A DNA stretch of 64,000 nucleotides from an uncultured Alphaproteobacteria bacterium. GTDB lineage: Bacteria; Pseudomonadota; Alphaproteobacteria; Rhizobiales; CAWCWK01. The stretch's first letter is position 1, and each line of letters starts with the position of its first letter. Below, piece after piece: positions 1 to 61,407 of this stretch. The DNA lies in contig CAWCWK010000004.1 of assembly GCA_963799285.1 (NCBI GenBank), positions 270,309-334,308 on the forward strand, read 5' to 3'. The translations under genes and the position numbers were made by a program. Below the pieces are notes generated by a model that was given only the letters and a program-made list of their open reading frames with translations, ran no database searches and was not told the origin of the DNA.

Positions 1-2042
1 TCGAGAACGCGGCCGCCCGGGGCGACCCACGCGGCGCGATCAAGCGGGCACAGATGCATCTCGCCGCGGCCGGCGATCGCGGCGGGCGCGACCGCGCGGC
101 CACGCTGTTGGAGGACGCGGCAGACGGCGGCTCGTTCGATGCGGGCGTGTCGCTGGCCCGCCTCCTTCTGGAGGATGGCACGGACACGGACCGTGCCGTC
201 GCGCTTCTGGAGACGGGCGCGGCGAACCACGACCCGACGGCCTTCCGGCTCCTCGCCCGTTTCCATCGCGGTGACTATACGGCGGTGTCGGACCCGGTCC
301 GCATGCGGGCGGTGCTGGACGCTGCGATGGCGAGACCCGGCGTCTCGGCCGACATCGTCGCCATGGCCGCGCAGCCGCCGCTGACGAGCCCACCGGGGCC
401 GGGTGATCGCGAACGCGCCGCCGCCCTGCGCGCCCGCTTAGCGGCAATGGAGGGGCCGGCCGCCGACCTCGCCTACGCTCGAGCGTTGCTCGGGGCGGGC
501 GAGGACCTGGCCGAGGCCGGGCGCCGCCTGCGCCGAGCCGCGGAAGGCGGCGATCCGCAGGCCATGACCGAGCTCTCTGAGTTCCTGCGCTGCGTGCCGG
601 GAGCGGACCCGGCGGGCGAGGCGATCCGCTGGCGGGCTCGGGCGGCCGAGGCCGGCAGCACGGCGAGCCAGCGCGCCCTGGCGGAAGCGGCGCTGCGCGG
701 CGGGCGGGCCGATGAGGCCGACCGATGGCTGCGCCGTGCGGACGACCTTGGCGATCGACTGGCCACGGCGCGGCTCGCCGTGCTCGCTGCGGGCGGAGGA
801 GGCGACGTCGGCCCCTCCGCCGATGGCGCGCGTCCAGCCACCTCGGCCGAGGTCGAGAGTTTCGTCGAGCGTGCGGCGGCCCTCGGCGAAGGGGTCGTCT
901 CCGGCCGCCTGGCCCTGCTTCGCGCGCAGCGGCGCGGCGAGCTCGACCTCGATGCCGATGCGCTGCTGGCCGGCCTCTCTCGCAGCCTCGATCCCGATGC
1001 GCGACTCGCTCGAGCCGAGGCTCTTCTGGCCCGCGGGGAGCTCTCCGCCGCGTCGGACGATGCCGCTCGGCTCCTCCAGGCGGCTGCGTGGCAGGGCCAG
1101 GCAGACGCGATGATGCGTCTGGCGGCAGGCGAACCCGCGCCGACCGGGGCCTTGGCGCCGCAGGGCGGGTGGCTCGTGGAAGCGGCCCGGCACGGCGACG
1201 CCGACGCACTCGCCCGGCTCCCCGACGATGCCGCCCTGGCAGAGGACGTCCTCGCCTCTGCGGGGCAGCGCCGGGTATGCGATCCGGCCGCGCTGGTGGC
1301 ATTGGCGTCGTTGGAGCGACGCTTTGGCAAGGGACGGGCGGGCCCGTCCGCGGCGGACTACCTCGCCCAGGCCGTCTCCATCGCCGGGGAGCGCCCGTCC
1401 GATCTCTACAAGGTCGCCCTCGCCTTCGCCTCCGGCGATGCGACGGGAGAGCCCGACACCGCGCAGGCGCGTGAGCTCCTGCGAGGCGCGGCCGAGGAAG
1501 GCCACGCAAAGGCCGCCGTTGCCCTCGCGCGATCACTGGCACGGGCTCCGGGCCGGGCCTTCACCGAGGCGCTAGGATGGCTGGAGATGGCGGCCGACGC
1601 GGGCGAGCCGTCGGCTGTCGAGACTTTGGCGCGCTTCGCGAGCGACGAGGCCGTCGACAGTGCGGAACGCGAGGCCGTGCTAGACACCCTAAAGGCCGTT
1701 GCCGATCGCGGCGACGTGCCGGCCATGAATGCCTACGGCGCGGCCGTCGTGGCGCTCGGCGAGGCCCGGCGCGAGGAGGGCCTGTCGTTCATTCTGAAAG
1801 CCGCGGCGGAGGAGGACCCCGGAGCGATGATGGCGCTGGCACGCCTTTATGCCTCCGGCGTCATGGGCGACGTGTCGGTCGACAAGAGCACCGAATGGCT
1901 GCGCCGGGCCGCACAGGCCGGGAACCCGGAGGCGATGTACCGCTATGCGATGGCGCTCGACGTCGGCCTGGGAACGCCGCCCGATCAAAAGGCGGCCGCA
2001 CATTGGCTCAAGCGGGCACGAGATCATGGCTTCAACCAGTAG
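1..2042 (+). CDS. Sel1-like (SLR/TPR-type) repeat protein, 5' end cut by the window edge
   Basis: The frame of ORF 54..2042 stays open back to nt 3 (ENAAARGDPRGAIKRAQ precedes the first Met). It holds many degenerate ~36-aa Sel1-type repeats, e.g. GDPQAMTELSEFL and GNPEAMYRYAMALDVGLGTPPDQKAAAHWLKRA. GC3 is high. Confidence 0.8.
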   Translation, partial: ENAAARGDPRGAIKRAQMHLAAAGDRGGRDRAATLLEDAADGGSFDAGVSLARLLLEDGTDTDRAVALLETGAANHDPTAFRLLARFHRGDYTAVSDPVRMRAVLDAAMARPGVSADIVAMAAQPPLTSPPGPGDRERAAALRARLAAMEGPAADLAYARALLGAGEDLAEAGRRLRRAAEGGDPQAMTELSEFLRCVPGADPAGEAIRWRARAAEAGSTASQRALAEAALRGGRADEADRWLRRADDLGDRLATARLAVLAAGGGGDVGPSADGARPATSAEVESFVERAAALGEGVVSGRLALLRAQRRGELDLDADALLAGLSRSLDPDARLARAEALLARGELSAASDDAARLLQAAAWQGQADAMMRLAAGEPAPTGALAPQGGWLVEAARHGDADALARLPDDAALAEDVLASAGQRRVCDPAALVALASLERRFGKGRAGPSAADYLAQAVSIAGERPSDLYKVALAFASGDATGEPDTAQARELLRGAAEEGHAKAAVALARSLARAPGRAFTEALGWLEMAADAGEPSAVETLARFASDEAVDSAEREAVLDTLKAVADRGDVPAMNAYGAAVVALGEARREEGLSFILKAAAEEDPGAMMALARLYASGVMGDVSVDKSTEWLRRAAQAGNPEAMYRYAMALDVGLGTPPDQKAAAHWLKRARDHGFNQ

Positions 2043-3306
2043 CGGCACATCGCCCCGGCCCCGCCCTTTGCGTCCAGGGCCCCATGCGCGGCGCTACGCC
2101 GTGCTCCTCCTGGCTGCGGGCCTCTTCAGCTGGGCCGGGACGCTGGTTCCTGCGCCGCCTTTCGGCGCCACTCCGGCGATGGCAGCCCCCGCCGATGGCC
2201 ACCTCCAGCAGCACGTAGCCGGGGCGCTGAAGGGTAGCCGCGTCGATCTTCGCGAGGCGGCCAAGCTCATTACGGCGCGCGGGCCACGGCCCTTCGACGG
2301 CGCGGCTGCCTTGCGGCCGCTCCTGCGGGCCGAGGCCCTGCTCGGATCGAGCGCCTCGGCCAACGCCTATGCCCTGATGCTGCAATTCGGCATCGGCGGG
2401 CCCAAGGACGCGCGCGAGGCGCCGGAATGGTATGCCCGGGCGGCTGCGGACGGAAACCGATCGGCCACCGACGACGCCGCGCTCGCCTATGCGCTCGGCT
2501 GGGGCGTGCGGCGCGACAACGGACGCGCCGACGATCTTCTGGCGACGCTCGACGCGGACGCCCGGGCGCGCTCCATGCTGCGGATCAGCGACGCGCTCAT
2601 GGCGCCGGGCCGCGAGGAGCCGGAGGAAGCCCGCCGCTGGGCGGCCCGCGCTGCCGCCCTCGGGACGGCTGACCAGACCCGCGCCGCGCTGCGCTACGAG
2701 AAGCTCGGTCCTGTCGACGCCGTGGCTGCGGACAAGCTTCGCACGTGGTTCGGTGCCGGCGTCGAGCGCGGCGAGGCGGCGGCCATGCTCGGTCTGGCCC
2801 GGCAGCTGAACGGCGGTTCAGACGAGGAGCGGGCCAGGGCGGCGACGCTGATGGCCTCCGCGATCGCCGGCGGGGACGGCCAAGCGGTGTCCGCGCTCGT
2901 CGGCCTTCTCGAGGCAAGGCGTAGGGGCGATCCCGCGCTCGCCCCCGTGATCGCGACGCTCGAGGAGATGGCGACGCGAGGCGTCGGCGGGGCGAGGTCT
3001 GTCCTCGCGCAGGTCTACGCCGTCTGGGGTGTCTCGGACCCGGAATTGCGGCGCCGTGGGCGCGGCCATCTCGAGGCCGCCGCCGAGGCTGGCGACGCGG
3101 AGGCGCAATACAGGCTGGCATTGGTCCTCCTCAACCCGGTGGACGGCTCGGCCGACTTGAAGGCGGCCCGGGCCTATCTTTCCCTCGCGGCGCAGAGCGG
3201 ACACAGCCTTGCGCGCGACGCCGTCTCGCAATTCGGGGAGATGCCGCTCGAAGAGGCCCGCAGCGCCGTAGAGGCCCACGCCGCGTCTCATGAGGCGGAG
3301 CGCTAG
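2026..3306 (+). CDS. Sel1-like repeat protein with N-terminal signal/anchor segment
   Basis: I take the internal ATG at 2026 of ORF 1849..3306, giving MASTSSGTSPRP...RRYAVLLLAAGLFSWAGTLVPAPP (hydrophobic leader). Sel1 repeats follow (ANAYALMLQFGIGGPKDAREAPEWYARAAADG; GDAEAQYRLALVLL). It overlaps the upstream paralogue by 17 nt. Confidence 0.75.
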   Translation: MASTSSGTSPRPRPLRPGPHARRYAVLLLAAGLFSWAGTLVPAPPFGATPAMAAPADGHLQQHVAGALKGSRVDLREAAKLITARGPRPFDGAAALRPLLRAEALLGSSASANAYALMLQFGIGGPKDAREAPEWYARAAADGNRSATDDAALAYALGWGVRRDNGRADDLLATLDADARARSMLRISDALMAPGREEPEEARRWAARAAALGTADQTRAALRYEKLGPVDAVAADKLRTWFGAGVERGEAAAMLGLARQLNGGSDEERARAATLMASAIAGGDGQAVSALVGLLEARRRGDPALAPVIATLEEMATRGVGGARSVLAQVYAVWGVSDPELRRRGRGHLEAAAEAGDAEAQYRLALVLLNPVDGSADLKAARAYLSLAAQSGHSLARDAVSQFGEMPLEEARSAVEAHAASHEAER

Positions 3307-3442
3307 GCCGGCGACGGCTCGCGTGGCGGCGGGCCTTCAGCCGGCCCGGGCAAGCTTAACTTCCGGCAAGTGACCCGGTGCCGCGCCGTGCTCAAACCGA
3401 TGGCCAGGTCCCGGCCGGGACGCTCCCACGTGAGGTAGATGC

Positions 3443-6028
3443 GTGACCCAACTGTTCGACATAAGGGACTATGGCGCCGTCGCGGACGACGGCTCCGACG
3501 ACACGGCGGCCATCGCCTCGGCCGTCGGCGCGGCGCGGGCTGCCGGTGGCGGAGCGGTCTACGTCCCCTCCGGCACCTTCCACGTGAGCGGCGACGCGAG
3601 CGATCCATCCGTCGGCGGCATCACGCTCTACTCCGACATCGACCTCATGGGCGACGGGATGGGGCTCTCGGTCGTCAAGCTCATCGACGGGTTCGACGCA
3701 CGGATCAACGGCATCGTGCGCACGACGCCTTCCGAGAGTGTGTCCAACGTCACCATCTCCAACCTGACCATCGACGGCAATCGCGCCAACAACGCCGACC
3801 ATCAGGCCGGCTTCATCTGCGGCGTGAAGGAAGACGGCAGCGGCCGCATCCACGAGAACATCACGCTGTCCAACGTGGAAGCGAAGGATTGCACGGGCTA
3901 CGGCATCGATCCGCACGAGTTCACCCGCAACATGACCATCGAGGGCTGCGTCTCGCACGGCAATGGCGACGACGGCATCACGCTCGACGGCGTCATTGGC
4001 GGGCTCGTCAGGGACAACCTCGCCTTCAACAACGACCGGCACGGCTTCAACCTGACGACGAGCACGAGCGACGTGCGGTTGGAGAACAACGTCTCCTACG
4101 GCAACGGCTCTTCCGGCCTCGTCGTCCAGCGCGGCGACATCTTCGCCCCCGGCACCAACGACGTCGCGTGGCCGAGCAATATCCAGATCGTCGGCGGAGC
4201 CTTCTACGCCAACCAGCGCGAGGGCGTGCTGATCAAGCTCTCGGACGGCGTCACCGTCACCGGCGCCGCGATTCACGACAATCTGCTTCAGGGCGTGCGC
4301 ATAGAAGGCGCGTCCGGCACCGTCATCGACGGCAACACGATCTACAACAACGCCAATCTCGGTGACGGCCTGACCGACGAGATCAACATCCGCTCACGCT
4401 TCGACGACGCGTCGGCGACCCCTCGGACCTACTATTCGACCGACACGCTCATCACCAACAACACGATCTACAGTACCGACGCGACCGCTCCCCGCTACGG
4501 CGTCCGCGAGGAGCTCGGCAATTCCAGCGCCGCCAAGCCCTCGGGAACGCTCGTCTCCGCCAACACGATCTCGGGGGCGGCGGCGGGGCCCTACTTCATT
4601 CCGCCCTATTCGGTGACGAACGGCGACGACTTACTGCCGGGAACCAAGTCGGGCGACGCCTTCGCCGGCCAGCTCGGCAACGACACCTATATCGTCAACC
4701 ATAGCGGCGACACCGTCACCGAGCAGGCCAATGCCGGCACGGATACGGTCTATTCGTCGCTGAACTTCGTGCTGCCGAACCATGTCGAGAACCTGTTCCT
4801 GACCGACAACGCGGTGCGCGGGACCGGCAACGGGCTCGCCAATGTCGTGGTTGGAAACGCGCTCGACAACCAGCTCACCGGTCTGGGCGGCGCCGACACG
4901 CTCGATGGCGGGGCGGGTGCCGACCTGATGACCGGCGGCGACGGCGACGACGTCTACGTGGTCGACGACGCGCGGGACACGATCGTGGAGAAGGCCCATT
5001 CCGGCCTCGGCGGCATCGATACGGTGTATGCCAGCGTCGACACCGTTCTGCCCGAGCAGGTCGAGGTGCTCGTCCTGACCGGCAGTTCCGACCTCGCCGC
5101 GACGGGCAACGGGCTCGCGAACACCCTCATCGGCAATGCCGGCGACAACGTTCTCGATGGCGCGGCGGGCGCGGACACCATGGTGGGCGGTCTTGGCGAC
5201 GATACCTACATCGTCGATCACACCGGAGACAGCGTGCGCGAGGCCTTCGACGCGGGCGTCGACACCATCGTATCGAGCCTGTCCTATACGCTCGGCGACA
5301 ATGTCGAGCGGCTCGTACTGTCCGGGACCGTAGCCCTCAACGGCACCGGCAACGGCGGCGCCAATAGCCTGGTCGGCAACGCGGGCGCCAACCGGCTGCA
5401 CGGCATGGGCGGCGACGACACACTGGAAGGCGGGCTCGGCACCGACCAGCTCTATGGCGATGGCGGCAACGACACCTTCGTACTGCGCAAGGGCGAGTTC
5501 TCCGGCGACACGGTCGAGGATTTTTATGGCAATGGGGGAGCCGATGGTGACCGCCTCCTGTTCACCGGCTTCGGCGCCTCGGCGACGTTGACCCGGGTCT
5601 CCGGCAACCTCTGGCAGGTCAGTGAAAATGGCTATGTGGAGACGTTCATGCTGAAGGCGGGCGGCGGGCTCGATGTCTCCGACTACGCCTTCGACGGTGC
5701 TTCGGGTTCGGCCGCCGCCGCCCTGATCGCCGATGCGAGCGTGACCGACACCCCACTCCTCCTGCCGGACCAGGGGGACACCTTCGACTTCACGCTCTTG
5801 GATACGCGGGCGGTCGACGAGGCGGGCGCGTTCAGGCGGACTGGAGCGGATGAGCCGTTCGCGTTCGGCGGTGTGGCCGACGCGACGGAGCGTTCCCCTC
5901 ACGGCGGCCCGGACTATTTCGCCTACCTTGCCGATCGTCACGGTGACGCGCCGGACGACGGGCTTGCAGGGTTTGCGAGCGAGGACCCGCGCGGCGAGAT
6001 GTATGGCTTCTCCGACGGTCTTATCTGA
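3443..6028 (+). CDS. AlgE-type mannuronan C-5-epimerase-like right-handed beta-helix protein with C-terminal RTX (GGxGxD) modules; putative type I secretion substrate
   Basis: GTG start with GAGG 8 nt upstream. The N-terminus DIRDYGAVADDGSDDTAAIASAVGAARAAGGGAVYVPSGTFHVSG and the blocks YGIDPHEFT (nt 3899-3919), NNDRHGFNLTTST, SYGNGSSGLVVQRG and REGVLIK are colinear with the A-module of Azotobacter AlgE epimerases as I recall them. Calcium-binding nonapeptide runs and an acidic C-terminus follow. Confidence 0.8.
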   Translation: MTQLFDIRDYGAVADDGSDDTAAIASAVGAARAAGGGAVYVPSGTFHVSGDASDPSVGGITLYSDIDLMGDGMGLSVVKLIDGFDARINGIVRTTPSESVSNVTISNLTIDGNRANNADHQAGFICGVKEDGSGRIHENITLSNVEAKDCTGYGIDPHEFTRNMTIEGCVSHGNGDDGITLDGVIGGLVRDNLAFNNDRHGFNLTTSTSDVRLENNVSYGNGSSGLVVQRGDIFAPGTNDVAWPSNIQIVGGAFYANQREGVLIKLSDGVTVTGAAIHDNLLQGVRIEGASGTVIDGNTIYNNANLGDGLTDEINIRSRFDDASATPRTYYSTDTLITNNTIYSTDATAPRYGVREELGNSSAAKPSGTLVSANTISGAAAGPYFIPPYSVTNGDDLLPGTKSGDAFAGQLGNDTYIVNHSGDTVTEQANAGTDTVYSSLNFVLPNHVENLFLTDNAVRGTGNGLANVVVGNALDNQLTGLGGADTLDGGAGADLMTGGDGDDVYVVDDARDTIVEKAHSGLGGIDTVYASVDTVLPEQVEVLVLTGSSDLAATGNGLANTLIGNAGDNVLDGAAGADTMVGGLGDDTYIVDHTGDSVREAFDAGVDTIVSSLSYTLGDNVERLVLSGTVALNGTGNGGANSLVGNAGANRLHGMGGDDTLEGGLGTDQLYGDGGNDTFVLRKGEFSGDTVEDFYGNGGADGDRLLFTGFGASATLTRVSGNLWQVSENGYVETFMLKAGGGLDVSDYAFDGASGSAAAALIADASVTDTPLLLPDQGDTFDFTLLDTRAVDEAGAFRRTGADEPFAFGGVADATERSPHGGPDYFAYLADRHGDAPDDGLAGFASEDPRGEMYGFSDGLI
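4676..5485 (+). repeat. Three tandem ~84-aa (~250-bp) modules inside the epimerase-like gene, each ending in GGxGxD runs
   Basis: Module starts are GNDTYIVNHSGDTVTEQANAGTDTVYSSL..., GDDVYVVDDARDTIVEKAHSGLGGIDTVYASV... and GDDTYIVDHTGDSVREAFDAGVDTIVSSL.... Each continues with VE.L.L.G....TGNG.AN...GNA..N.L.G..G.D. Confidence 0.8.
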
Positions 6029-6173
6029 CCCGCCATGGCGGCCATGCGTGGCTCGATGGGCGAATGCCGCCGGTTCGGGTCCGGCGAGGCCCGTCACCAG
6101 CGGCGCCGCGCCCGGGCCGCATACGTCCTGCTGGGTTCTTCTTGCGTCCGTGCGCCGTTCCGGCCTCGCTAGC

Positions 6174-6614
6174 GTGCCGGCCGTTGCTGTCACCAGGTTC
6201 GACCTCGATCCCAGGCAGCTGCGGGAAGCGGCCGCCAAGGCGAGCGACGCCCGATCGGCCCGGCGCATGCTCGCCATCGCCCTCGTTCTCGAAGGCGTTG
6301 ATCGCAAGAGCGCGGCGGAGACCTGCGCGATGGACCGCCAGACGCTGAGGGACTGGGTACGCCGCTATAACGCCCAAGGCCTCGACGGGCTTCAGAACCG
6401 TCGGCCTCCCGGGCCGCCCTCCCGCCTCACGGACGCACAGATGGCCGAACTCGCCGCGCTGCTGCACCAGCACCCGAACGCTGGGGGACCGCGAACGTGG
6501 CGCCCGGCCGAGATACGCTTTCTCATCCGACAGCGGTTCGGCATCGACTATCACGAACGCACGGCAGCCAAGATCCTTACGCGTCTGCGACGAGTGCGTC
6601 CCCCCATCGACTGA
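6174..6614 (+). mobile_element. IS630-family transposase N-terminal (HTH / winged-helix) fragment; no DDE domain follows
   Basis: The tail of ORF 5850..6614 reads ARRMLAIALVLEGVDRKSAAETCAMDRQTLRDWVRRYNAQGLDGLQNRRPPGPPSRLTDAQMAELAALL...WRPAEIRFLIRQRFGIDYHERTAAKILTRL. This matches the DNA-binding half of IS630-type transposases. No catalytic domain is recognisable downstream in any frame. The start (GTG 6174) is uncertain. Confidence 0.6.
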
Positions 6615-7110
6615 ACCGGCGCTCCTTGAGGGCCCAGACCCTAATCCTCCGGGATGGTGAGGGGAGCTTCGCGCGGGTTCCGGGACCGGGGGGCGCCGTG
6701 CGCTCATCCGGCGCCACATCCACGATCGGACGTCTGTCCCCCCGAGCGCGGGCCACCGCGCGGTCCAAAACGCCTCTCGGCCGCCCATCGAAAACGCGCC
6801 CTGGGCTTTGACCCCTCCCCGTTAGGGCTCCTGTCCATCCGCTTCGAGAGCACTCGGGCCACGGGTGCGCTCGCCTCCCTCCTTCCTATCCCCCGTCCGC
6901 CGAGCCTTCAGTTGCGGAACGGCGCGGTCCTGCCTTTCCCGACCCGGGCAACGCCGCTTCGTGCGTGCGTGGCGGGCCCAGCGGTCACTTTCAAGGCCGG
7001 TCGCCTGGACCACACGCAATTTGCACCCTGGTGAATCACGATCCGGTCACATTCGGCCGTGTACCAGTGATTTATCGAGTTGTGTCGGCAACGGACAATA
7101 CGGCGCGTAC

Positions 7111-7149
7111 CTGACCATAAGATCTATAATACACTGGGCTCATGGTCAG
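7111..7149. promoter_or_regulatory. 8-bp inverted repeat CTGACCAT-N23-ATGGTCAG inside an AT-rich island upstream of the PL7 lyase gene
   Basis: Read directly: CTGACCAT at 7111-7118 and ATGGTCAG at 7142-7149. A third TGGTCAG lies at 7249-7255. The surrounding ~7030-7250 is clearly more AT-rich than the window. Confidence 0.3.
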
Positions 7150-7330
7150 ATCATGCCGCAGTAAAAATCGACAGCTATTGTAATTGCATACGAAAAACTA
7201 CCCTTTCTTACATTGTGATTACTTTACAGAGCTGCCTTTAGGTTCGAGTGGTCAGGATTGGTGTCTGGGCGTCATGCGACGACGTCTTTCCCCATGGTCG
7301 ACCGTTCGTCGATCCTTCCGGCCTAGGCGG

Positions 7331-7348
7331 GCGACCCTCGAGGGTCGC
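7331..7348. promoter_or_regulatory. 18-bp perfect palindrome GCGACCCTCGAGGGTCGC, ~115 nt upstream of the PL7 lyase start
   Basis: Read directly from the sequence. It could be an operator or an RNA hairpin (7-bp stem, 4-nt loop). Function is unknown. Confidence 0.3.
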
Positions 7349-7462
7349 GCGATACGCTCGAAGGGGGGGCTGGGCGCGGGGTCGCGCGGGGGCGCAACGA
7401 ATACTGCACACAGGACAGGCCGCCTTCGCCACTTGGTAGAGGCCGCCCAGAAAGGTTGAACG

Positions 7463-8794
7463 ATGAGCGTAAACTCCGAACATTTCGATCTCACGAACTG
7501 GAAGCTGACCCTTCCAGTGGACAAGGCGGGAACGATCTCCGGCCGTGCCGCAGAGGTTGCGGACCTCAACGGTTTCGAAGACCCGCGGTCCTTCTTCGAC
7601 GACGACACCGGCGCCATGGTCTTTCGCGTGTCCGTCGACGGCGCCACCACCGGCGGCAGCAAGTATCCCCGCTCAGAGCTGCGCGAGATGGACGGCGATG
7701 ACAGAGCCGCCTGGACGCTCTCCGAGGGCGGCACGATGAGCGCCACGCTGACCGTCCAGGAAGCCCCGACGCTCGACAAGGGCGGGCTCGGCCGGATCGT
7801 GGTTGGACAGATCCACGGGAGCGACGACGAGCTCGTCCGGCTCTACTGGGACAACGGCTCCGTCTACTTCAAGAACGATCAGGCCGGTCCGTCCGACAAG
7901 GAACTGAAGTTCACATTTACCGCATCCGACGGGAGCGAGCCGGACATCGCGCTCGGCGAGCGTTTCTCCTACGTCATCGAGGCGCGAGGCGAGACGCTTG
8001 CGGTCTCTATCTTCGCCGATGGCAAGACCTATACCTCCGTGACGCGGATCAACGACGTCTGGCAGTCCGATGCGCTCTATTTCAAGGCCGGAGCCTATCT
8101 CGGCGTCAACGAGACGAATGGCGATGGGTTCGGGCAGGTCGCGTTTCACGGCCTCGACTTCTCGCATGAGCCAGGCCGGGGCCTGGGCGGCCTCGTATCG
8201 GCGCCAAGCGAAGGCGACGAGGTCGTCGGGGGCGGTCAAGTGGACCCCGCGACCGAGCCTGCAGTCGATGTGGTGGACCTCCCGGTAGACGAGCCTCCCA
8301 AAGTCTCCGAAGAAGGCGAGACGTTCGCCGGCACGTCCGGCAATAACGCTCTCACCGGCGGTCATGGGAACGACACGTTCTACGGTCGAAGGGGCGACGA
8401 CGTCCTCGATGGTGGGGGTGGCGACGACGTGATCTGGGGCAATAGCGGTCAAGATACCCTGATCGGCGGGGCCGGCGACGATTGGCTCAAGGGCGGCGAC
8501 GGCATCGACACCTTCGTCTTCGAGGCGGGGCACGGCCACGACATCGTGCACGAGTTCCGGCGCGGCGAGACGCTCAAGCTCTCCGACACGTGGTTCGCAT
8601 CCCGGGACGACGTCCTCGATGCGCTGGTGAGGACGGATGACGGCCTCCTTCTCAAGACCGGGACCGTGTCCTCTATCCTCTTCACCAATACGAGCGAACG
8701 CGACCTCATGGGAGGGACGATCGAGCTCGAGACTGCCGCAAGCCCGACCAACGGCGCAGGGGATTCCCTGCTCGACCTCCCTGCCGGCTTTTAG
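7463..8794 (+). CDS. Polysaccharide lyase family 7 (alginate_lyase2) domain fused to RTX repeats; putative secreted alginate lyase
   Basis: PL7 signature blocks appear in order: WKLTLP, RSELRE (7670-7687), QIH (7808-7816) and YFKAGAY (8078-8098). RTX nonapeptides follow: GGHGNDTFYGRRGDDVLDGGGGDDVIWGNSGQDTLIGGAGDDWLKGGDGIDTF (8324-8518). Confidence 0.85.
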   Translation: MSVNSEHFDLTNWKLTLPVDKAGTISGRAAEVADLNGFEDPRSFFDDDTGAMVFRVSVDGATTGGSKYPRSELREMDGDDRAAWTLSEGGTMSATLTVQEAPTLDKGGLGRIVVGQIHGSDDELVRLYWDNGSVYFKNDQAGPSDKELKFTFTASDGSEPDIALGERFSYVIEARGETLAVSIFADGKTYTSVTRINDVWQSDALYFKAGAYLGVNETNGDGFGQVAFHGLDFSHEPGRGLGGLVSAPSEGDEVVGGGQVDPATEPAVDVVDLPVDEPPKVSEEGETFAGTSGNNALTGGHGNDTFYGRRGDDVLDGGGGDDVIWGNSGQDTLIGGAGDDWLKGGDGIDTFVFEAGHGHDIVHEFRRGETLKLSDTWFASRDDVLDALVRTDDGLLLKTGTVSSILFTNTSERDLMGGTIELETAASPTNGAGDSLLDLPAGF

Positions 8795-9359: not shown

Positions 9360-10346
9360 GTGGTGATAGAAAGAAACGCTCCAGTGGATCGCGATAATCC
9401 CTCCGATGGTGCGGACGCAAAGCTCGAAGTCGATCGATATGGCGATGAGGGCCGCGATCTCGTCGGCTATCGCGGACGCTGGCCCGATATCCTCTGGCCC
9501 AACGGGACGCGACTCGCGGTCAGCGTCGTGCTGAATTTCGAGGAGGGGGCTGAACTGCAGGTAGGCGACGGCGATCCCATGAGCGAGCGCATGGGCGAGG
9601 TGCTCAGCGTCGTGCCAGAGGGCCGGCGCGACTTCGGTCAGGAACAGATCTTCGCTTACGGCACGCGCGCCGGCCTGTGGCGCTTCCTCGACACGCTCGA
9701 AGCCGAGGCCTGCCCAGCCACGATCTTCTTCTGCGGCCGAGCCGTCGCGCGCGCGCCCTCCCTTGCGCGGGCCTGTGTGGCAAGAGGGCACGAGGCGGCT
9801 TGCCACGGCTGGCTTTGGAGACCCCACGCCGACTATACGTCGCGAGACGCAGAGGCCGCCGACCTCGACCGCGCGCTCGACGCCATCGAGGCGGCGACGA
9901 AGGAGCGGCCCCGCGGATTCTTCTGCCGGGGCGGCGAGAGCCCCTGGACGCGCGACCTCCTCGTCGAGCGCGACTTCGCCTACACCTCGAACGCATTCGA
10001 CGACGACCTGCCCTACTGGACGAAGAACGGCGACCTCCTCGTTCTACCCTACGCGCTCGATACGAATGACATGAAGTTCTTTCATCCCAACGGCTTCGTG
10101 CTCGCATCCGAGATGGTAGACTATGTCCGCGACGCTTTGGAGACGCTCCTCCTGGAGGCCGAGAGCGGGCGGGCCCGGGTCCTTAATATCGGCTTTCACC
10201 TGCGCATCGCGGGCCGGCCGGCGCGGTTCCGTGCCGTGCGCGAGATTTTGGCGATGCTGAGCGCGCACCGCGACAGGCTATGGCTTGCCCGGAGGATCGA
10301 TATCGCCGAGGCGTTCCGTAGCCAAGTCCCACCGCGGGCGCGCTAG
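9360..10346 (+). CDS. PuuE-type (polysaccharide-deacetylase fold) ring amidohydrolase homologue, allantoinase-like
   Basis: RDLVGYRGRWPDILWPNGTRLAVSVVLNFEEGAE...HGWLWRPH...PYALDTNDMKF...LNIGFHLRIAGRPAR is colinear with PuuE allantoinase as I recall it. The GTG start at 9360 has no clear RBS, so the start is uncertain. Confidence 0.75.
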   Translation: MVIERNAPVDRDNPSDGADAKLEVDRYGDEGRDLVGYRGRWPDILWPNGTRLAVSVVLNFEEGAELQVGDGDPMSERMGEVLSVVPEGRRDFGQEQIFAYGTRAGLWRFLDTLEAEACPATIFFCGRAVARAPSLARACVARGHEAACHGWLWRPHADYTSRDAEAADLDRALDAIEAATKERPRGFFCRGGESPWTRDLLVERDFAYTSNAFDDDLPYWTKNGDLLVLPYALDTNDMKFFHPNGFVLASEMVDYVRDALETLLLEAESGRARVLNIGFHLRIAGRPARFRAVREILAMLSAHRDRLWLARRIDIAEAFRSQVPPRAR

Positions 10347-13484: not shown

Positions 13485-14540
13485 ATGACGAAGCTAATCA
13501 ACCGCAGAATCTTCAATAGCGGCCTATTCGGCGCCGGCGTGGCAGCTGCGACGCTGGCGAAGCCCAACATCGTCCGCGCGCAGGATCGCGAGCTCGTGAT
13601 CATCAGCTACGGCGGCGCCCTGCAGGAGCCGCATCGCTGGCTCGGCGACAAAATGGAGGCCCAGCACGCGGGGCTGCGTGTCGTCCTGGTACCCTCCGAG
13701 AGCCAGGACATTGTCGCCCAGATCAAGGCCGCGCAGGGCTTCAGCCCCTATGACGCGATGCCGAACGGCGAGCCGCCGCACCTGATCGCGATCCAGGAGG
13801 GCTATATCGAGAAGGCCGATCCGTCGCAGATTCCGAACCTCGCGAACGCCATCCCGGAATTCGTCGCCAAGAGCCAGGGCTACGGCGTTCCGGCGACCTT
13901 TTCGCTGATCGGGCTCGCCTACAACGAGGAGATGGTCGAAACCCCGCCGACCTCGTGGGCCGACATGTGGAACGAGGAATATGCCGGTCAGGTCGGCATC
14001 TGCCGAACGTCGTCCAATCTCGGGCTCGGCACGCTGGCCGTGGTCTCCAAGATCTTCGGCGGCTCGGAGGACGATCTCTCCGTCGGCTAGCAGAAGCTTC
14101 AGGAGCTCAACCCCATCGCCGGCCGCAGCCCGCGCATCCTGTCGCAGATGATGGAGCGCGGCGAGATCGCCATGGCGCCGCTGTGGAATAACGACGCCGC
14201 CGTCGCGGCCGAGAAGGGCCTGCCGATCAAGTTCGTCAAGCCCGATCCCGGCCCTGTCGCGATCATCTCCTTCATGTCGCAGATCGCCAATTCGCGCGAG
14301 CCCGAGCTCGTCAACGAATGGCTGAACGGCATCCTGTCGGAGGAGTATCAGACCATGGCGGCCGCCGCGCCCTATTACTTCGGTGCAACGGTGCAAGGCA
14401 TTGAGATCCCGGAGGCCGCGAGACCCTATACGCCTTCGACGCCGGAGGAGGTGCTCAGCCTGCAGACGGTCGACTGGTCCAAGATCGTGCCCATTCGCGG
14501 CGACCTGGTCGAACAGTTCGACCGCACGTTCGCGGGCTGA
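13485..14540 (+). pseudogene. PotD/family-1 ABC substrate-binding protein interrupted by an in-frame TAG at 14088-14090
   Basis: ORFs 13485..14090 and 14148..14540 are in the same frame. Read-through gives ...GGSEDDLSVG*QKLQELNPIAGRSPRILSQMMERGEIAMAPLWNND.... A signal peptide is present (RRIFNSGLFGAGVAAATLAKPNIVRA). A single G-to-A change from TGG (Trp) would explain the stop. Confidence 0.8.
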
Positions 14541-20289: not shown

Positions 20290-21198
20290 CTAGCGTTCGG
20301 GAAAATCCGAGATGGGCGGTCGTGGCTCCCAGACGGGGAGCCCCTGTGCAACGCGCCACGCCCGCGCAATCTCTGCGCGCGTCATGAAGCGCACGCCCGG
20401 CCGCGCAGACATATGGTCGAGCGCCGCCTCCAGCCCGCCGATCCGCGCCGGCCGGCCGATGATACGCAAATGCAGTCCGATCGAGAGCATGCGCGGCGCA
20501 TCGGCGCCTTCGGCATAGAGCCGATCGAAGGCGGCGATGCAGTAGCGCGCGAAGTCTTCCGCGAAGACGAAGCCGCCATTGCGCTGGAAGCGCATGTCGT
20601 TGGTATCGAAGGCGTAGGGCAAGACGACATGCGTGCGCTCTGCGAGCCGCACGGTATAGGGCGCATCGCCATTATAGGCGTTGGAATCATAGAGAAAGCC
20701 GCCTTGTTCCAGCAGCAGCCTGCGCGTGTTGATCGACGTGGCCGAGCGGGTGTGCCAGCCGACGGGCGGGCGGCCCGCCGTCTCCCGGATCGCGGCGACG
20801 GCTCGGCCAATGGCGCGGCGCTCCTCGGTTTCGCTCATGTGCGCATGCGTTTCCCAGCGCCAACCATGGGCCGAGATTTCGTGCCCATCCGTAACGGCAT
20901 CGCGGGCGATATGCGGATTCTCCATCAAGGCGCGGCCGCAGGCGTTGAGCGTCGCGGGAACGCCGCGCGAGCGAAGGACCTCGCGGATGCGTGCCCAGCC
21001 AATGCCGGCGCCGTAGTCGAAATGGGAGTCCATGCACGGGTCGGGAACGCCCGTGACCTCCTCGACCACCTCGTATACGCCTTCGTTCCGTGCGTCGCCG
21101 CGCGCGATCGAGAGCTGCGCGCCCTCTTCGACGTTCACGACGATCGACACGGCGAGCCGATCGCCGTCAAGCCAGTCGCGACCTGCCTGCTCGTCCAT
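20290..21198 (-). CDS. PuuE-type (polysaccharide-deacetylase fold) ring amidohydrolase homologue (paralogue 2)
   Basis: ATG at 21198 is preceded by GGAGAGG. LAVSIVVNVEEGAQ...HGWRWETH...GWHTRS...LPYAFDTNDMRF...LSIGLHLRIIGRPAR is strongly PuuE-like. Confidence 0.85.
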   Translation of the reverse strand: MDEQAGRDWLDGDRLAVSIVVNVEEGAQLSIARGDARNEGVYEVVEEVTGVPDPCMDSHFDYGAGIGWARIREVLRSRGVPATLNACGRALMENPHIARDAVTDGHEISAHGWRWETHAHMSETEERRAIGRAVAAIRETAGRPPVGWHTRSATSINTRRLLLEQGGFLYDSNAYNGDAPYTVRLAERTHVVLPYAFDTNDMRFQRNGGFVFAEDFARYCIAAFDRLYAEGADAPRMLSIGLHLRIIGRPARIGGLEAALDHMSARPGVRFMTRAEIARAWRVAQGLPVWEPRPPISDFPER

Positions 21199-21244
21199 GC
21201 AGTTCCTCTCCACCGATCATTCCGACCCTGACGGATGCGACAAG

Positions 21245-29427: not shown

Positions 29428-30840
29428 TTAGGCGCCACGCGGCGCGGCCAAGAGCCAGAGGCCAAAAAGCGTGTAGCAAATCATGAAGCCAGCGAGCGGT
29501 ATCTGAGACACGACGGCCCGTTCGCGATCACCGGCGAGGCGCAGCGCGACGTGGTGCGAGACGAGGACGGACAGCACGTGGCCGCCCACGACGAGCGCCG
29601 CTTGGGTCAGCCAGATTGCGCGCACGCTGTCGGCCGTGTTGAGAAAGCCGGTCGTCACCCGCGTTTCGCCAAGGCCGAAGAGGTTGGCACCCGTCGCGAG
29701 CGGATCGCCGATCGCGGCCAGGAGATACTGGCCGTCGACGAGGAAAGCGACGAGGAAATGCGAGGTGTGATAGCCGACCGCGATTGGCAGGACCGCCGGA
29801 GCGAGACCGCGAAAGAGGGATACGAAGCCGATATGCTCGGCGGGCGGCCGCCCCCGATCGGCCAGCCGCGCGCCCAGCCAGACGATGCCGGCGAAGGCGA
29901 GCGGCACGAGAATGCAGGCAGCGGCCAGTCCCCATAGCGACGACGCCAGTACGGCGCTACGGCCGGGAAATTCGAGCGGGTTCACGTCGATCCGCGCCAA
30001 CCACCAGAACGTCTCCTTCAACCCGTCAAAGCTGCCGCCGGCGAGGATGACGAGGGCGAAAACGCCAGCGCTCGCCGGCATCAGATCGTCGCGCGTCAGC
30101 CCCCAGCCCGGGCAGCCGATGGCGGGGCGTGGCGCGGGGTGGATGATCGCCGTCCGACCGAGAAGCGCGAAGAGGACCGAGAAGGCCTCGACCTGCGACA
30201 GCCAGGCCCGATCGCCGACGAGCGCCATGCCGGCGAAGGTGAAGAGGGCGTAGGCGAGCACTATCATCGCCAGCCGATCGGGATCGGCGGGTGCCGGATC
30301 GGCGATGTGGAAGGCCGAAAAGGCGATGAAGACGAGAAGCGCCGGCCAGACCCCTACACACGCCGGCATCGATAAAGGCGGCGCGCCGGCCAGCCTCAGG
30401 ATCGCCAGCCGATAAGGCCCGACCCAGGGGTTGATGAAGACCCAGGCGTTGCCAAAGAGGCCGACCACCGAGAAGAAGATGATCCAGAAGCCCGTCCAGA
30501 ACACAAGCGGCAGCGCGTTCGTCAAGGGATCGCGCGGGCCGGTGATGCCGGCCCAGACGAGGAAGACCCAGAAGGCGAAGGCCAGCAGGCTCGTTGCCGT
30601 CGTCAGGGCTCGGGGCGATGTCGGGACGGGAAGCGTTGCGGCCGCGAAGAGTTGCGTCGTCGCGTGCGTCGGCGCGGCCGAGATGAGCAGGATCGAGGCC
30701 AGCACCGAGAGGCAACCGCCGACGATGTAGTGCCCCGTCGGCAAGAGCAGCACGAAGGCCTGCTCGGAGACATGTGCCGCCGCCGGCGCGGCCAGTAATC
30801 CCATGCCTAGGATTGCGAGCGCTATCCCCCATACGCGCAT
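29428..30840 (-). CDS. Polytopic inner-membrane protein of unknown function with cleavable-looking signal peptide
   Basis: ATG at 30840 is preceded by AAGGAG (7-nt spacer). The N-terminus is MRVWGIALAILGMGLLAAPAAA/HVSEQAFVLLLPTGHY. About 12 hydrophobic segments follow. I do not recognise a family. Confidence 0.6.
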   Translation of the reverse strand: MRVWGIALAILGMGLLAAPAAAHVSEQAFVLLLPTGHYIVGGCLSVLASILLISAAPTHATTQLFAAATLPVPTSPRALTTATSLLAFAFWVFLVWAGITGPRDPLTNALPLVFWTGFWIIFFSVVGLFGNAWVFINPWVGPYRLAILRLAGAPPLSMPACVGVWPALLVFIAFSAFHIADPAPADPDRLAMIVLAYALFTFAGMALVGDRAWLSQVEAFSVLFALLGRTAIIHPAPRPAIGCPGWGLTRDDLMPASAGVFALVILAGGSFDGLKETFWWLARIDVNPLEFPGRSAVLASSLWGLAAACILVPLAFAGIVWLGARLADRGRPPAEHIGFVSLFRGLAPAVLPIAVGYHTSHFLVAFLVDGQYLLAAIGDPLATGANLFGLGETRVTTGFLNTADSVRAIWLTQAALVVGGHVLSVLVSHHVALRLAGDRERAVVSQIPLAGFMICYTLFGLWLLAAPRGA

Positions 30841-30922
30841 CGCCGCGCTCCTTCGCTGGAACCGTCCCCAAATCATGTTAGTGTGCTAGCGATCTTTTGA
30901 GAAGCGAAGAGGCCGACCACCG

Positions 30923-32709: not shown

Positions 32710-33287
32710 TTCAGACCGTCCTCTCCTTTGATGTCAGCGGCTTCGAGGCCGCCGGAGCGCGAGTGGACGCGCGGACCCGTCGTCATGACGAGCGCGACCA
32801 GCATCTCGTCGGCGCGGGGCGCGTCGTTGAGGCCAATCTCCATCGAATCGAAATGGCTGCGCACGTAGGACGCGTTGACATGCGTGATCGGCACGTCGAT
32901 GCGGGCGCCCATGCCGCCGACCTTCTTGGCAGACGGCACGATGGCCTTCGAGCCGCCGATCACTTCGCGCATGGCGTAGCCGCCCGGCGCGTGCCAGAGC
33001 GCGCCGTGCTCCAGCTCGCCCGCCGCACCGACCAGCGAGGCCTTGCCATAGCCCTCGATTTTGTCCGCCCCGCCAAGCGCGGCGACGAGCTGCTTGGCGA
33101 GCTCCAGGCCGAGCGGGCGCAGATCATCGATGAAGCCCTGAATGTCCGGCTCGTAGCGCCCCGCGAACGGGTTGGCGATGACGGCAAAGGCCGCGCCGCG
33201 AAGCAGTGGGGTGGCCGGTGCCGGCCCTCCCTCATGGAAGATCTCCTCCACGGTGACGACGCGTTTTCGAATCTCGGGGGCAGGCAT
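32706..33287 (-). CDS. Amino-acid-synthesis family protein (AA_synth / DUF1185), paralogue A
   Basis: ANPFAGRYEPDIQGFIDDLRPLGLELA...YGKASLVGAAGELEHGALWHAPGG...VPSAKKVGGMGARIDVPITHVNASYVRSHFDSMEIGLNDAPRADEMLV. Confidence 0.75.
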   Translation of the reverse strand: MPAPEIRKRVVTVEEIFHEGGPAPATPLLRGAAFAVIANPFAGRYEPDIQGFIDDLRPLGLELAKQLVAALGGADKIEGYGKASLVGAAGELEHGALWHAPGGYAMREVIGGSKAIVPSAKKVGGMGARIDVPITHVNASYVRSHFDSMEIGLNDAPRADEMLVALVMTTGPRVHSRSGGLEAADIKGEDGLK

Positions 33288-34186
33288 CAGGCGATCTCCA
33301 GTCTGGTCTCACGGGCGGCGAGAAGCGGCCCGGCATGGGCGCTCTCGCCTTGAAGGAAGAGGGCGGCGGCGAGGATCTGCCTTTGCGCAACCATTCGCGC
33401 CGCGCGGCGCCGTCCGGCCTCGAGGGCTGCGCGCTTGTCGGCTTTGGCGAGCGGCGGCACCCGCGTCACGACGAGCCGGTCGCCGAGATCGCTATCGGGA
33501 TGCAGCGTCTCGGCCGGTGCGCGCGAGATGCCGGGATGGTCCGGCAGGTCGACGGCATTGGCGATCAGCGTCGCGGCGACGTCGGCCTCGGCCGCGCAGC
33601 GCGCGAGAACGGTCACGCTCGTCGCGATACCGAGTGAGAGGCTGCGCCCCCCTGACCCGCTCGTCGCGATGCCGCCAATGCCGGCATGGGCGTCGATCGT
33701 GATGCGGCCGAGATCGGAGCCCTCCACACCTGCCATCGCGATCGCATAGGTCGCATCGCCAGCGAGATGCAGCGCGATGTCGCCGCCATTGTTGACATAG
33801 GCCCGGCGCGGAGCGGTCACGGCCAGGATTGCCGCCAGGACCTCGTCGGAGACGGAGCCCGCCACCGCGATCATCGGCGTGAGGAACGCCGTCCCGCAGA
33901 AGGGCCGCGCTGCGCGATACATCCGACATGCGGTCGGATCGGCGGGGTCTGGCGTATCCCCGCGTAGCGGCATGCGGTGGGTCGGCAACTCGGAGACGAG
34001 TCCGTTCAAAATGCTATCGAAGCGCGTCGCGGCGGCCTCGAATGCCGCATTCCGCTCGACGTCATTCCTCGCATCGACGCCGACGATCAGATCGATCGGC
34101 CCGTGCTGGAGATGCAGGCGCCGTCCGCCGTCGAGAAGTACCGCCGCCGGCCCCTGCATCGGGGTCTGGGCTCCAGCCTTACGCAC
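33287..34186 (-). CDS. UPF0280-family protein (ApbE-like superfamily)
   Basis: LLDGGRRLHLQHGPIDLIVGV...GTAFLTPMIAVAGSVSDEVL...GIGGIATSGSGGRSLSLGIATSVTVLA. It overlaps the upstream reductase-like gene by 8 nt. An alternative start is ATG 34159. Confidence 0.65.
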   Translation of the reverse strand: MRKAGAQTPMQGPAAVLLDGGRRLHLQHGPIDLIVGVDARNDVERNAAFEAAATRFDSILNGLVSELPTHRMPLRGDTPDPADPTACRMYRAARPFCGTAFLTPMIAVAGSVSDEVLAAILAVTAPRRAYVNNGGDIALHLAGDATYAIAMAGVEGSDLGRITIDAHAGIGGIATSGSGGRSLSLGIATSVTVLARCAAEADVAATLIANAVDLPDHPGISRAPAETLHPDSDLGDRLVVTRVPPLAKADKRAALEAGRRRAARMVAQRQILAAALFLQGESAHAGPLLAARETRLEIA

Positions 34187-60990: not shown

Positions 60991-61407
60991 TCACGTTTCC
61001 TCTGCGGTCTTCGGGCGTTCGGCCAGGACGGCGAGAAGTGCCGATAAGACCCGCCCGTCGGGCGATGGTTTGGTGCAGAGCGGCGCGCCTGGAAAGCGCT
61101 CCGTCAGGTCGTGGGAATCGACATGGCCGGAATGGAAGATGAAGCCGATCTTTCGCTCCTGCAGAATGGCGGCCGCAGGGAAGACCTCCTTGCGGCCGAC
61201 CATGATATCGAGGATCGCGGCGTCGAAGGTCTCGGACGCCAGACCGTCCAGCAGCTTGTCCAATGTCGCGTAGGGCCCGACGACCCGGCCGCCGTGCCGC
61301 TCGACGATCTCTTCGAGGTCGAGCGCGATCAAGGCCTCGTCTTCGGCGATGAGGATCGAGCGTCCCGCTAGGACGCCTGCCTCCGGGGCATGCTCCAACG
61401 CGATCAC
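60991..61407 (-). CDS. Single-domain response regulator (receiver only)
   Basis: GTG at 61407 forms a GTGA overlap with the kinase stop. The sequence is RSILIAEDEALIALDLEEIVERHGGRVVGPYATLDKLLDGLASETFDAAILDIMV...FIFHSGH. Confidence 0.75.
   Translation of the reverse strand: MIALEHAPEAGVLAGRSILIAEDEALIALDLEEIVERHGGRVVGPYATLDKLLDGLASETFDAAILDIMVGRKEVFPAAAILQERKIGFIFHSGHVDSHDLTERFPGAPLCTKPSPDGRVLSALLAVLAERPKTAEET

Follow-up and report, generated by a model that had tools for sequence, protein, structure and literature searches.

Introduction

Bacterial alginate synthesis, and above all the extracellular formation of G-blocks by epimerases of the AlgE type, is known from textbooks as a trait of Azotobacter and Pseudomonas alone. 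The algE genes of Azotobacter are located away from the alg operon, and eexDEF forms a further, separate operon. Rhizobia possess secreted enzymes that act outside the cell on their own exopolysaccharide; these are PlyA/PlyB, ExsH and EglC, leaderless RTX glycanases exported by PrsDE, a type I system encoded elsewhere. The Azotobacter epimerases AlgE1-7 are exported via the system encoded by eexDEF (PMC6140867), and A. vinelandii also secretes AlyA3, a polysaccharide lyase of family 7 (PL7) with three R-modules that opens the cyst coat and is needed for cyst germination (PMC4444821). In a survey of 1733 genomes published in 2020, alginate operons were largely confined to Pseudomonas, apart from a few atypical operons of environmental bacteria (PMC7112194), and CAZy entries of family PL5 are known from Rhizobium, Agrobacterium and Microvirga (PMC11890756). 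Here, we analyzed a stretch of 64,000 nucleotides from an uncultured alphaproteobacterium (contig CAWCWK010000004.1 of assembly GCA_963799285.1, positions 270,309 to 334,308; the whole stretch is referred to as the window), whose first 8794 nucleotides encode a homolog of the AlgE-type epimerases and a PL7 lyase, both with RTX repeats, preceded by two Sel1-repeat proteins.

We consider it likely that positions 1-8794 form the terminal part of a locus for an alginate-type exopolysaccharide in a Hyphomicrobiales-like alphaproteobacterium, whose secreted enzymes would act on the cell's own polymer. By analogy, the pairing of a secreted epimerase with a PL7 lyase most likely repeats the AlgE/AlyA3 logic of Azotobacter in the Alphaproteobacteria. 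This proposal draws on the homologies, the catalytic residues, the domain architectures, the absent leaders and the gene order in relatives, and extends from them to the upstream genes of the source genome, secretion, substrate and enzymatic outcome, which are worded conditionally below. The genes are individually recognizable and have in part already been annotated automatically; to our knowledge, an alphaproteobacterial alginate locus with its own subclade of secreted epimerases has not been described.

A predicted AlgE-type epimerase with RTX repeats

When the 861-amino-acid protein was compared with the PDB (phmmer), residues 5-395 matched the A-modules of AlgE6 (5lw3, E = 4.8e-80) and AlgE4 (2pyg, E = 7.9e-78), and the third-ranked match was an alginate epimerase/lyase (8ja4). 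The AlphaFold2 model of residues 1-400 (pLDDT 88.9) had the AlgE4 A-module (2pyg) as its best Foldseek match, with a TM-score of 0.85-0.93 and a root-mean-square deviation of 1.9 Å; the runner-up folds were phage tailspikes (E~1e-11). The beta-helix A-module is shared with A. vinelandii AlgE1-7 and P. syringae PsmE at ~41-43% identity in structural alignment. The YGIDPHE block corresponds to residues 153-159, and the four catalytic residues of AlgE4 (Y149, D152, H154 and D178), whose roles have been defined for AlgE4 and AlgE7 (PMC8824271), are all kept, as Y153, D156, H158 and D182. The supporting residues D173, R195 and H196 (AlgE4 numbering) are likewise kept, as D177, R199 and H200. Sequence and model together identify this protein as a homolog of the AlgE-type A-module, and with E-values from 1e-50 to 1e-80, chance is ruled out for the family assignments.

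These results agree with the first-pass annotation of this DNA, which had described an AlgE A-module-like beta-helix with a YG(F/I)DPHE block and suggested that the helix be placed among its relatives and the catalytic Tyr/Asp/His block be aligned properly. The block is kept on alignment, and the helix belongs to a subclade of AlgE-type A-modules found only in Hyphomicrobiales. The protein is not AlgG-like: with the AlgG homolog of the related clusters described below, in which the motif has the DPHD form, it shares 24% identity over 88 residues only.

Downstream of the A-module, six strict GGxGxD nonapeptides are arranged as three pairs (residues 489-506, 573-590 and 663-680; nucleotides 4907-4960, 5159-5212 and 5429-5482) within repeated units of ~90 residues, which were delimited by eye and motif, self-BLAST of the repeat region having given no internal repeats. 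The three RTX modules of the earlier description are a fair account of this arrangement. The repeats resemble those of rhizobial EglC (NCBIfam model, 129 bits), and a second match to the same model scored 70 bits. R-modules of the AlgE type bind Ca2+ and are ~155 residues long; those of AlgE4 and AlgE6 matched only residues 636-772, and weakly (E 5e-4 to 9e-4; phmmer against the PDB). The window enzyme differs from the AlgE proteins in that its repeats resemble EglC-type units, of which the last alone weakly matches R-modules, as well as in its alphaproteobacterial origin, its single A-module, its membership of a separate subclade with His/Ala in place of K117-D119, and the location of genes of its type at the end of a biosynthetic cluster. 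The rhizobial glycanases share the repeat style, but they are glycoside hydrolases acting on succinoglycan or acidic exopolysaccharide, whereas the window would encode an epimerase and a lyase for an alginate-type polymer.

The protein is acidic (D+E 122 vs. K+R 41) and has no hydrophobic N-terminal leader. Its C-terminus, also acidic, ends in ...GFSDGLI, presumably a type I secretion signal. In being leaderless and carrying C-terminal Ca2+-binding repeats, which imply type I secretion, it resembles the AlgE enzymes. The epimerase orthologs of several relatives are 1290-1470 residues long and have cadherin-like and Big_9 domains after the RTX repeats (locus L009, 9995-14104; L003, 9977-14398); this extension is absent from the window protein and from the Pseudochelatococcus ortholog (870 residues).

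A subclade of A-modules with changes beside the active site

Screening one genome per species yielded 286 relatives of the A-module. The closest ones (52-58%) all belong to Hyphomicrobiales (Fulvimarina, Aliirhizobium, Flaviflagellibacter, Rhizobium/Allorhizobium, Pseudochelatococcus and Antarcticirhabdus), and are followed by many Microvirga paralogs. A neighbor-joining tree and a motif table (loci L001-L068) separated two kinds of A-module. The canonical kind, characterized by K(V/I)DG(W/F) and YGFDPHE, is that of Azotobacter, Pseudomonas and one Microvirga clade without any link to alg genes. The second occurs in Hyphomicrobiales only, contains DHQAGF(I)CG or HQAGIITG and nearly always YG(F/I/V)NPHE, and couples three changes, K117 to H, D119 to A and D152 to N, which bear directly on the proposed AlgE mechanism. 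Physical linkage to alg clusters, Sel1 genes and PL7 genes was observed for this second kind only, and several copies of both kinds are present in Microvirga genomes. The window epimerase belongs to the second kind, with DHQAGFIC replacing the GKVDGWFN of AlgE, yet it keeps the Asp of the motif; the only other such member is the Fulvimarina protein.

Since this divergent subclade has changes beside the active site, an AlgE-like activity cannot simply be assumed. Its members could act mainly as lyases, be bifunctional, or bind the polymer without catalysis, in which case the locus would encode two depolymerases. Bifunctional A-modules of the AlgE type do exist (AlgE7, 8ja4), and the substitutions themselves (His and Ala for K117 and D119, and the Asn of nearly all members) favor such a role, given that AlgE7 with D119A or D119N has 0.5-2% of its activity left (PMC8824271). 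A nearby Asp of the window protein (its own D119) might make up for the lost residue. However, the window protein keeps Y153/D156/H158/D182, and at position 148 it has Gly, like the epimerase-only AlgEs, where the lyase activity of AlgE7 depends on R148 (PMC8824271). Moreover, D152N is better tolerated than D152E in AlgE7, keeping more activity, and a dedicated PL7 lyase is encoded alongside. We therefore regard a subclade of lyases or binders as unlikely, and epimerization as the preferred role of the 861-residue protein.

The PL7 lyase and its surroundings

The PL7 domain of the 443-residue protein is complete (Pfam Alginate_lyase2, PF08787, profile positions 1-225 of 225, E = 1e-51). The catalytic jelly-roll spans residues 8-235 (nucleotides 7484-8167), and the RTX repeats span residues ~290-372 (nucleotides 8330-8578), within the C-terminal 200 residues, with three strict nonapeptide repeats (Pfam HemolysinCabind, 4e-20). 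This protein is also acidic (D+E 78 vs. K+R 32), lacks a signal peptide and ends in ...SLLDLPAGF. The conserved blocks of PL7 are RxExR, QxH and YxKAGxYxQ (PMC8618178). Two of them are canonical here (RSELR and QIH), and the third reads YFKAGAYLG, with the final Q replaced by G; the YFKAGxYLG form is common to all nine syntenic PL7 orthologs. The initial claim that this protein has every PL7 signature block followed by RTX repeats is thus upheld for the complete domain, the first two blocks and the repeats, and has to be amended for the third block.

Among PDB entries, PL7 alginate lyases matched this protein at 1e-26 to 1e-22, and the glucuronan lyase 7nde at only 1e-11. It resembles AlyA3 in combining a PL7 domain with C-terminal Ca2+-binding repeats, in lacking a leader, and in that the host of AlyA3 also has AlgE-type epimerases. 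It differs from it in being nearer to 8wok and 5zu5 (1e-26) than to PA1167 (7e-12), the P. aeruginosa homolog of AlyA1-3, and in the third motif ending in G instead of Q; no cyst biology is known or implied for the window organism. PL7 orthologs at 55-65% adjoin AlgE-type genes in Antarcticirhabdus, where the gene (65% identical) is flanked by the last Sel1 gene on one side and the epimerase gene on the other, and in eight Microvirga loci, and an ortholog at 57% is found at the alg cluster of a Rhizobium gallicum chromid.

In the window, the epimerase and PL7 genes are separated by a gap of 1.4 kb (6029-7462) that contains a remnant of an IS630-family transposase (NCBIfam transpos_IS630, positions 5-108 of 299). 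No DDE domain for it was found in the downstream open reading frames (ORFs), nor were convincing terminal inverted repeats. The presence of this remnant between the two genes, both of which are intact, reveals a local rearrangement. A 255-residue ORF on the opposite strand (6021-6788), which a public assembly lists as a gene, matches no known family and is likely to be spurious.

Two Sel1-repeat proteins and the upstream edge of the window

Two Sel1-repeat proteins precede the enzymes, as first annotated, the Pfam Sel1 family being matched by both. There is no stop codon upstream of the first ATG (54) of the first ORF, whose frame is open to position 1; therefore, the window starts inside this gene (Sel1A). 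A database search provided the full-length protein (P0193, 100% identical), which has 944 residues and a signal peptide (MPILTAQPP...LGLAAPAFG). For the second protein, Sel1B, a leader is plausible if translation starts at ATG 2026, where the sequence reads RRYAVLLLAAGLFSWAGTLV...AMA and then AP; a public gene call uses an alternative start at 2179, which gives 375 residues. A leader had initially been ascribed to one Sel1 protein, which is plausible for Sel1B with the start at 2026, but Sel1A also has one, its gene being cut by the edge of the window.

The resemblance of these proteins to AlgK, to which the same annotation alluded, was supported for Sel1A. Residues 104-334 of P0193 matched AlgK (7ula_B) weakly but specifically (E = 7e-6); the PDB matches of Sel1B were Sel1 proteins. 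The equivalog level of AlgK was not reached. The NCBIfam model has a cut-off of 700 bits, whereas the window protein scored 20.6 bits and the first Sel1 protein of the related metagenomic locus L080 scored 64.9 bits. No canonical lipobox was found in the Sel1 protein, in which the residues before Cys are ...LASAIC. Sel1 repeats, signal peptides and a place within the alg clusters of relatives are all traits shared with AlgK, and make Sel1A a candidate AlgK-like scaffold in the periplasm.

Exact look-ups of the 861-residue protein and of the 426-residue Sel1B gave no match, and those of the PL7 protein and P0193 returned two short Logan contigs (L082 and L083). L083 is 100% identical to the window and reaches 2127 bp further upstream, where a further gene ends 5 bp before Sel1A; an exact 40-mer from the end of this contig had no match in JGI metagenomes. 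Since the product of this gene is 42-44% identical to a Sel1 protein of ~915 residues that occupies the same position in relatives, the source genome has three consecutive Sel1 genes followed by the epimerase gene, Sel1A being the second. Orthologs of Sel1A at 35-44% occupy the same position in 11 relatives, and orthologs of Sel1B at 42-46% are located in 11 relatives directly upstream of the epimerase gene or of an intervening PL5 or PL7 gene.

The corresponding loci of relatives are linked to homologs of alginate biosynthesis genes

In 12 loci of Hyphomicrobiales, orthologs of both window Sel1 proteins are encoded directly upstream of the epimerase, and AlgG-like and PL5/AlgL-like genes lie upstream in the 11 of the 12 that reach far enough (within L001-L012). 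The order Sel1-Sel1-Sel1-(PL5)-epimerase was observed in L001, L002, L004, L005, L007-L012 and L028. The best-resolved loci encode an AlgG-like beta-helix protein, a PL5 lyase of the AlgL type, Sel1 proteins of ~915, ~930 and ~410 residues, an optional second PL5 lyase and the AlgE-type RTX protein. As in Azotobacter, the secreted enzyme is accompanied in these relatives by a periplasmic AlgG-type epimerase.

Further upstream genes were seen in metagenomic locus L080, which encodes, in this order, a regulator of the Crp family, a nucleotide-sugar dehydrogenase, a glycosyltransferase of family GT2, a PilZ/Alg44-type protein, an enzyme of the mannose-1-phosphate guanylyltransferase/isomerase type, orf662, an AlgG-like protein, PL5 and the Sel1 proteins. 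At the nucleotide level, L080 is 77-79% identical to, and colinear with, two genomes (L008 and L005) whose cluster ends in an AlgE-type gene. A second metagenomic locus (L081) has the same gene set, except that an algA homolog was not found. Eight Microvirga loci have algD-alg8-alg44-algA-orf662-algG in divergent orientation beside an AlgE-type gene, with a PL7 ortholog between them in four of the eight.

The product of orf662 is a secreted helical-repeat protein of ~660 residues (662 in L080). It was considered as the missing outer-membrane porin, and this idea was dropped given its helical-repeat nature. In Microvirga and Pseudochelatococcus, the helical-repeat protein is fused to the N-terminus of AlgG, giving proteins of 1050-1260 residues (L016, 36-3797 on the minus strand; L019, L020 and L025; L012, 3-1922).

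The Alg8-like assignment rests on Pfam architecture and gene order, the glycosyltransferase having matched neither a PDB entry nor an Alg8-specific NCBIfam model. Homologs at 56-57% are present on chromids of Rhizobium gallicum, R. etli 8C-3, R. grahamii and R. sullae. In R. gallicum M101, a cultured nodule rhizobium, the 2.5-Mb chromid pRGM101b (L084, 851236-884642) encodes PL7, PL5, AlgD, Alg8, Alg44, AlgA and AlgG, and an AlgE-type gene is absent nearby. Alg8 homologs were also observed on plasmids of Rhodobacterales (Loktanella, Salipiger, Tateyamaria and Jannaschia), and a search of the PLSDB plasmids with the AlgE-type A-module gave no relevant match.

Compared with the canonical algD-8-44-K-E-G-X-L-I-J-F-A operon, the relatives have algD, alg8-like, alg44-like, algA, algG and algL genes in one cluster that likewise opens with algD-alg8-alg44. 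In contrast, the single AlgK lipoprotein (~450 residues) is replaced by three Sel1 proteins (~915, ~930 and ~410 residues), the ~660-residue helical-repeat protein and the genes for the secreted epimerase and PL7 lyase are added, and neither the AlgE porin nor AlgX nor the acetylation genes algI/J/F were detected.

The nature of the polymer was weighed on these enzymes. It could be another polyuronate, such as glucuronan or a heteropolymer, on which the beta-helix enzyme and the PL7 lyase would act: PL7 includes glucuronan lyases (7nde, E = 1e-11), the lyase clade has the atypical third motif YFKAGxYLG, the A-module subclade has the binding-groove changes K117H and D119A, and the Alg8-like glycosyltransferase lacks a match to the Alg8-specific model or a solved structure. 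On the other hand, the dehydrogenase of the related clusters aligns end to end with the GDP-mannose 6-dehydrogenase AlgD of P. aeruginosa at 2.5e-132, whereas the top-scoring UDP-glucose dehydrogenase reaches 6e-74. This enzyme is accompanied by a transferase matching the mannose-1-phosphate guanylyltransferase/phosphomannose isomerase model (GMP/PMI, 6e-110) as expected of AlgA, a beta-helix protein matching the AlgG model (312 bits, E = 6e-93), and AlgL-like PL5 lyases, and the top PDB matches of the PL7 enzyme are alginate lyases. A non-alginate polymer is thus quite unlikely, and the substrate of the window enzymes, judged by these homologies, is probably polymannuronate.

Action on the cell's own exopolysaccharide, on that of neighbors or on algae had all been contemplated in the first-pass annotation. 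The synteny with AlgG-, AlgL-, algD-, alg8-, alg44- and algA-like genes in relatives favors the first of these. That the two enzymes form a foraging or attack module, degrading the alginate of brown algae, Pseudomonas or Azotobacter for nutrition or competition, would fit with secreted PL7 lyases being typical of alginate degraders (PMC8618178) and with the several transporters encoded in the window. However, genes for an oligoalginate lyase, for KdgF/DehR-type catabolism or for a TonB-dependent receptor are absent from the vicinity of the two genes, the adjacent PuuE-like and amidohydrolase genes are unrelated to uronates, an epimerase has no obvious catabolic use, and the linkage to biosynthetic alg genes is repeated across many genera, all of which makes foraging very unlikely. 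An extracellular uronan-remodeling module, as it was first called, would remain an apt name for the two enzymes in view of the alg-linked gene order in relatives; however, the module is not free-standing but forms the 3'-terminal part of a larger locus, which extends beyond the edge of the window.

Predicted secretion of the two enzymes

Nonapeptide repeats, an acidic composition and the lack of a leader, which are the traits of RTX substrates, were found in both enzymes. As noted at first reading, HlyB/HlyD/TolC-type genes are absent from the 64-kb window; this was established by Pfam searches of 45 further ORFs and by tblastn with a type I ABC protein and its HlyD partner. Since the Azotobacter AlgE proteins are exported by the eexDEF system, the lack of secretion genes in the window is unremarkable. 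An ABC transporter and an HlyD-type protein are encoded directly beside the epimerase ortholog in L003 and L006. The ABC exporter and HlyD genes are directly upstream of the epimerase gene in Flaviflagellibacter deserti and in a metagenome-assembled genome related to it, and algD/alg8/alg44 homologs are downstream. ABC/HlyD genes also occur near the Pseudomonas homologs in L072, L075 and L078.

Proposed function of the locus

If the upstream genes of the source genome correspond to those of its relatives, AlgD and AlgA (mannose-1-phosphate guanylyltransferase) would supply GDP-mannuronate, which the Alg8-like glycosyltransferase and its PilZ/membrane-fusion partner, similar to Alg44, would polymerize, with probable activation by cyclic di-GMP. 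The polymer would pass the periplasm via the AlgG-type epimerase, the AlgL-type PL5 lyase and three large Sel1 proteins in the stead of AlgK, the window encoding the last two of these putative scaffold proteins. The two leaderless, acidic RTX enzymes would leave the cell through a type I system whose genes lie elsewhere, and extracellular Ca2+ would be expected to bring about their folding and activation. Once outside, the AlgE-type epimerase would convert mannuronate into guluronate in the finished polymer, creating Ca2+-gelling blocks, and the PL7 lyase would cut the polymer, allowing cell release or the control of chain length.

Several observations weigh against this proposal. The alg genes upstream in the source genome are placed there by synteny with relatives that share only 35-65% protein identity with it. 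Neither an AlgE/AlgJ-type porin nor AlgX or AlgI/J/F was found among the genes called in the related clusters L080 and L081, and type I secretion genes are lacking within 64 kb. The K117-D119 pair of characterized epimerases is not kept in the window epimerase, where the residues are His120 and Ala122, and with these changes, and mostly Asn for D152 in the subclade, activity may differ from that of AlgE. The adjacency of the epimerase and PL7 genes in the window is partly the result of rearrangement, given the IS630 remnant between them. Finally, the open-access literature that was searched yielded no account of alginate synthesis, or of enzymes of the AlgE type, for Hyphomicrobiales, although an earlier description is possible.

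A broader idea, which we put forward tentatively and hold to be possible rather than probable, is that soil- and plant-associated Alphaproteobacteria, among them many Hyphomicrobiales (Microvirga, Rhizobium, Allorhizobium, Fulvimarina relatives) and the window organism, have a complete alginate pathway with an export scaffold of their own, composed of three giant Sel1 proteins and the helical-repeat protein, without the AlgE porin, AlgX and AlgIJF. Together with their own subclade of secreted AlgE-type enzymes and PL7, they may tailor a gel-forming alginate extracellularly, with a product pattern or a pH/Ca2+ behavior unlike that of the Azotobacter enzymes. If these rhizobia-like soil bacteria have a working version of the pathway, it would represent a new matrix polymer for rhizosphere, desiccation and nodulation biology, a natural experiment on the rebuilding of the periplasmic and outer-membrane export scaffold, and a new pool of epimerases and lyases for alginate tailoring, of industrial value.

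Features of positions 1-8794 and other genes of the window

The feature set of positions 1-8794 comprises five features, all on the plus strand (Table 1). The GC content of the window is 67%, and the third-position GC of all long ORFs of this region is 0.82-0.87, as in real genes. Rfam and tRNA scans of the window gave no match, hence no cyclic di-GMP riboswitch, and a promoter/terminator scan did not find more sites than in shuffled sequence.

Table 1. Coordinates of the features encoded at the start of the window, with the epimerase also divided into its two parts.
Feature	Position	Strand	Evidence
Sel1A (P0193), 3' two-thirds, 679 codons	1..2042	+	Frame open to position 1; Pfam Sel1 E = 8.7e-16
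Sel1B, Sel1-repeat protein, 426 residues from ATG 2026, third Sel1 gene of the cluster	2026..3306	+	Pfam Sel1 E = 4.5e-10
AlgE-type epimerase homolog, full ORF, 861 residues	3443-6028	+	Pfam Beta_helix, Pect-lyase_RHGA_epim, HemolysinCabind
Epimerase A-module, residues 1-392, right-handed beta-helix with YGIDPHE	3443..4618	+	phmmer against the PDB, AlphaFold2, Foldseek
Epimerase Ca2+-binding/RTX region and tail	4625..6028	+	Pfam HemolysinCabind E = 1e-21, 4 stretches
IS630-family transposase remnant, N-terminal helix-turn-helix part only	6270..6614	+	Pfam HTH_32/HTH_29/HTH_28; NCBIfam transpos_IS630
PL7 lyase with RTX tail, 443 residues	7463..8794	+	Pfam Alginate_lyase2 and HemolysinCabind

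The polysaccharide module ends at 8794. A downstream gene annotated as a polysaccharide deacetylase, at 9360-10346 (plus strand), was considered as an alginate deacetylase in the manner of the N-module of PsmE, and this possibility was discarded because its product resembles the allantoinase PuuE and lacks a leader, and the gene has no counterpart at the loci of relatives. This gene and its paralog at 20290-21213 (minus strand) flank amidohydrolase, SIS-domain, ABC-transporter, BtpA and isochorismatase genes; the region has the appearance of a catabolic island for ureides or N-heterocycles and bears no relation to the polysaccharide genes. Two adjacent short ORFs on the plus strand (13485-14090 and 14148-14540) match a single family of solute-binding proteins (SBP_bac_8/6), one in the N-terminal half and the other in the C-terminal half, and may represent a gene split by a frameshift or a stop codon.

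At the other end of the window, positions 61404-63995 (minus strand) encode an 863-residue protein in which a CheR methyltransferase domain is fused to PAS domains and a histidine kinase of the HWE type; the HWE kinase fits an alphaproteobacterial origin. Three further regions on the minus strand (29428-30876, 33287-35687 and 53992-54711) are coding-like by third-position GC and match no Pfam family; two of these ORFs (299 and 502 residues) are located directly downstream of an operon for a molybdoenzyme of the xanthine dehydrogenase type.

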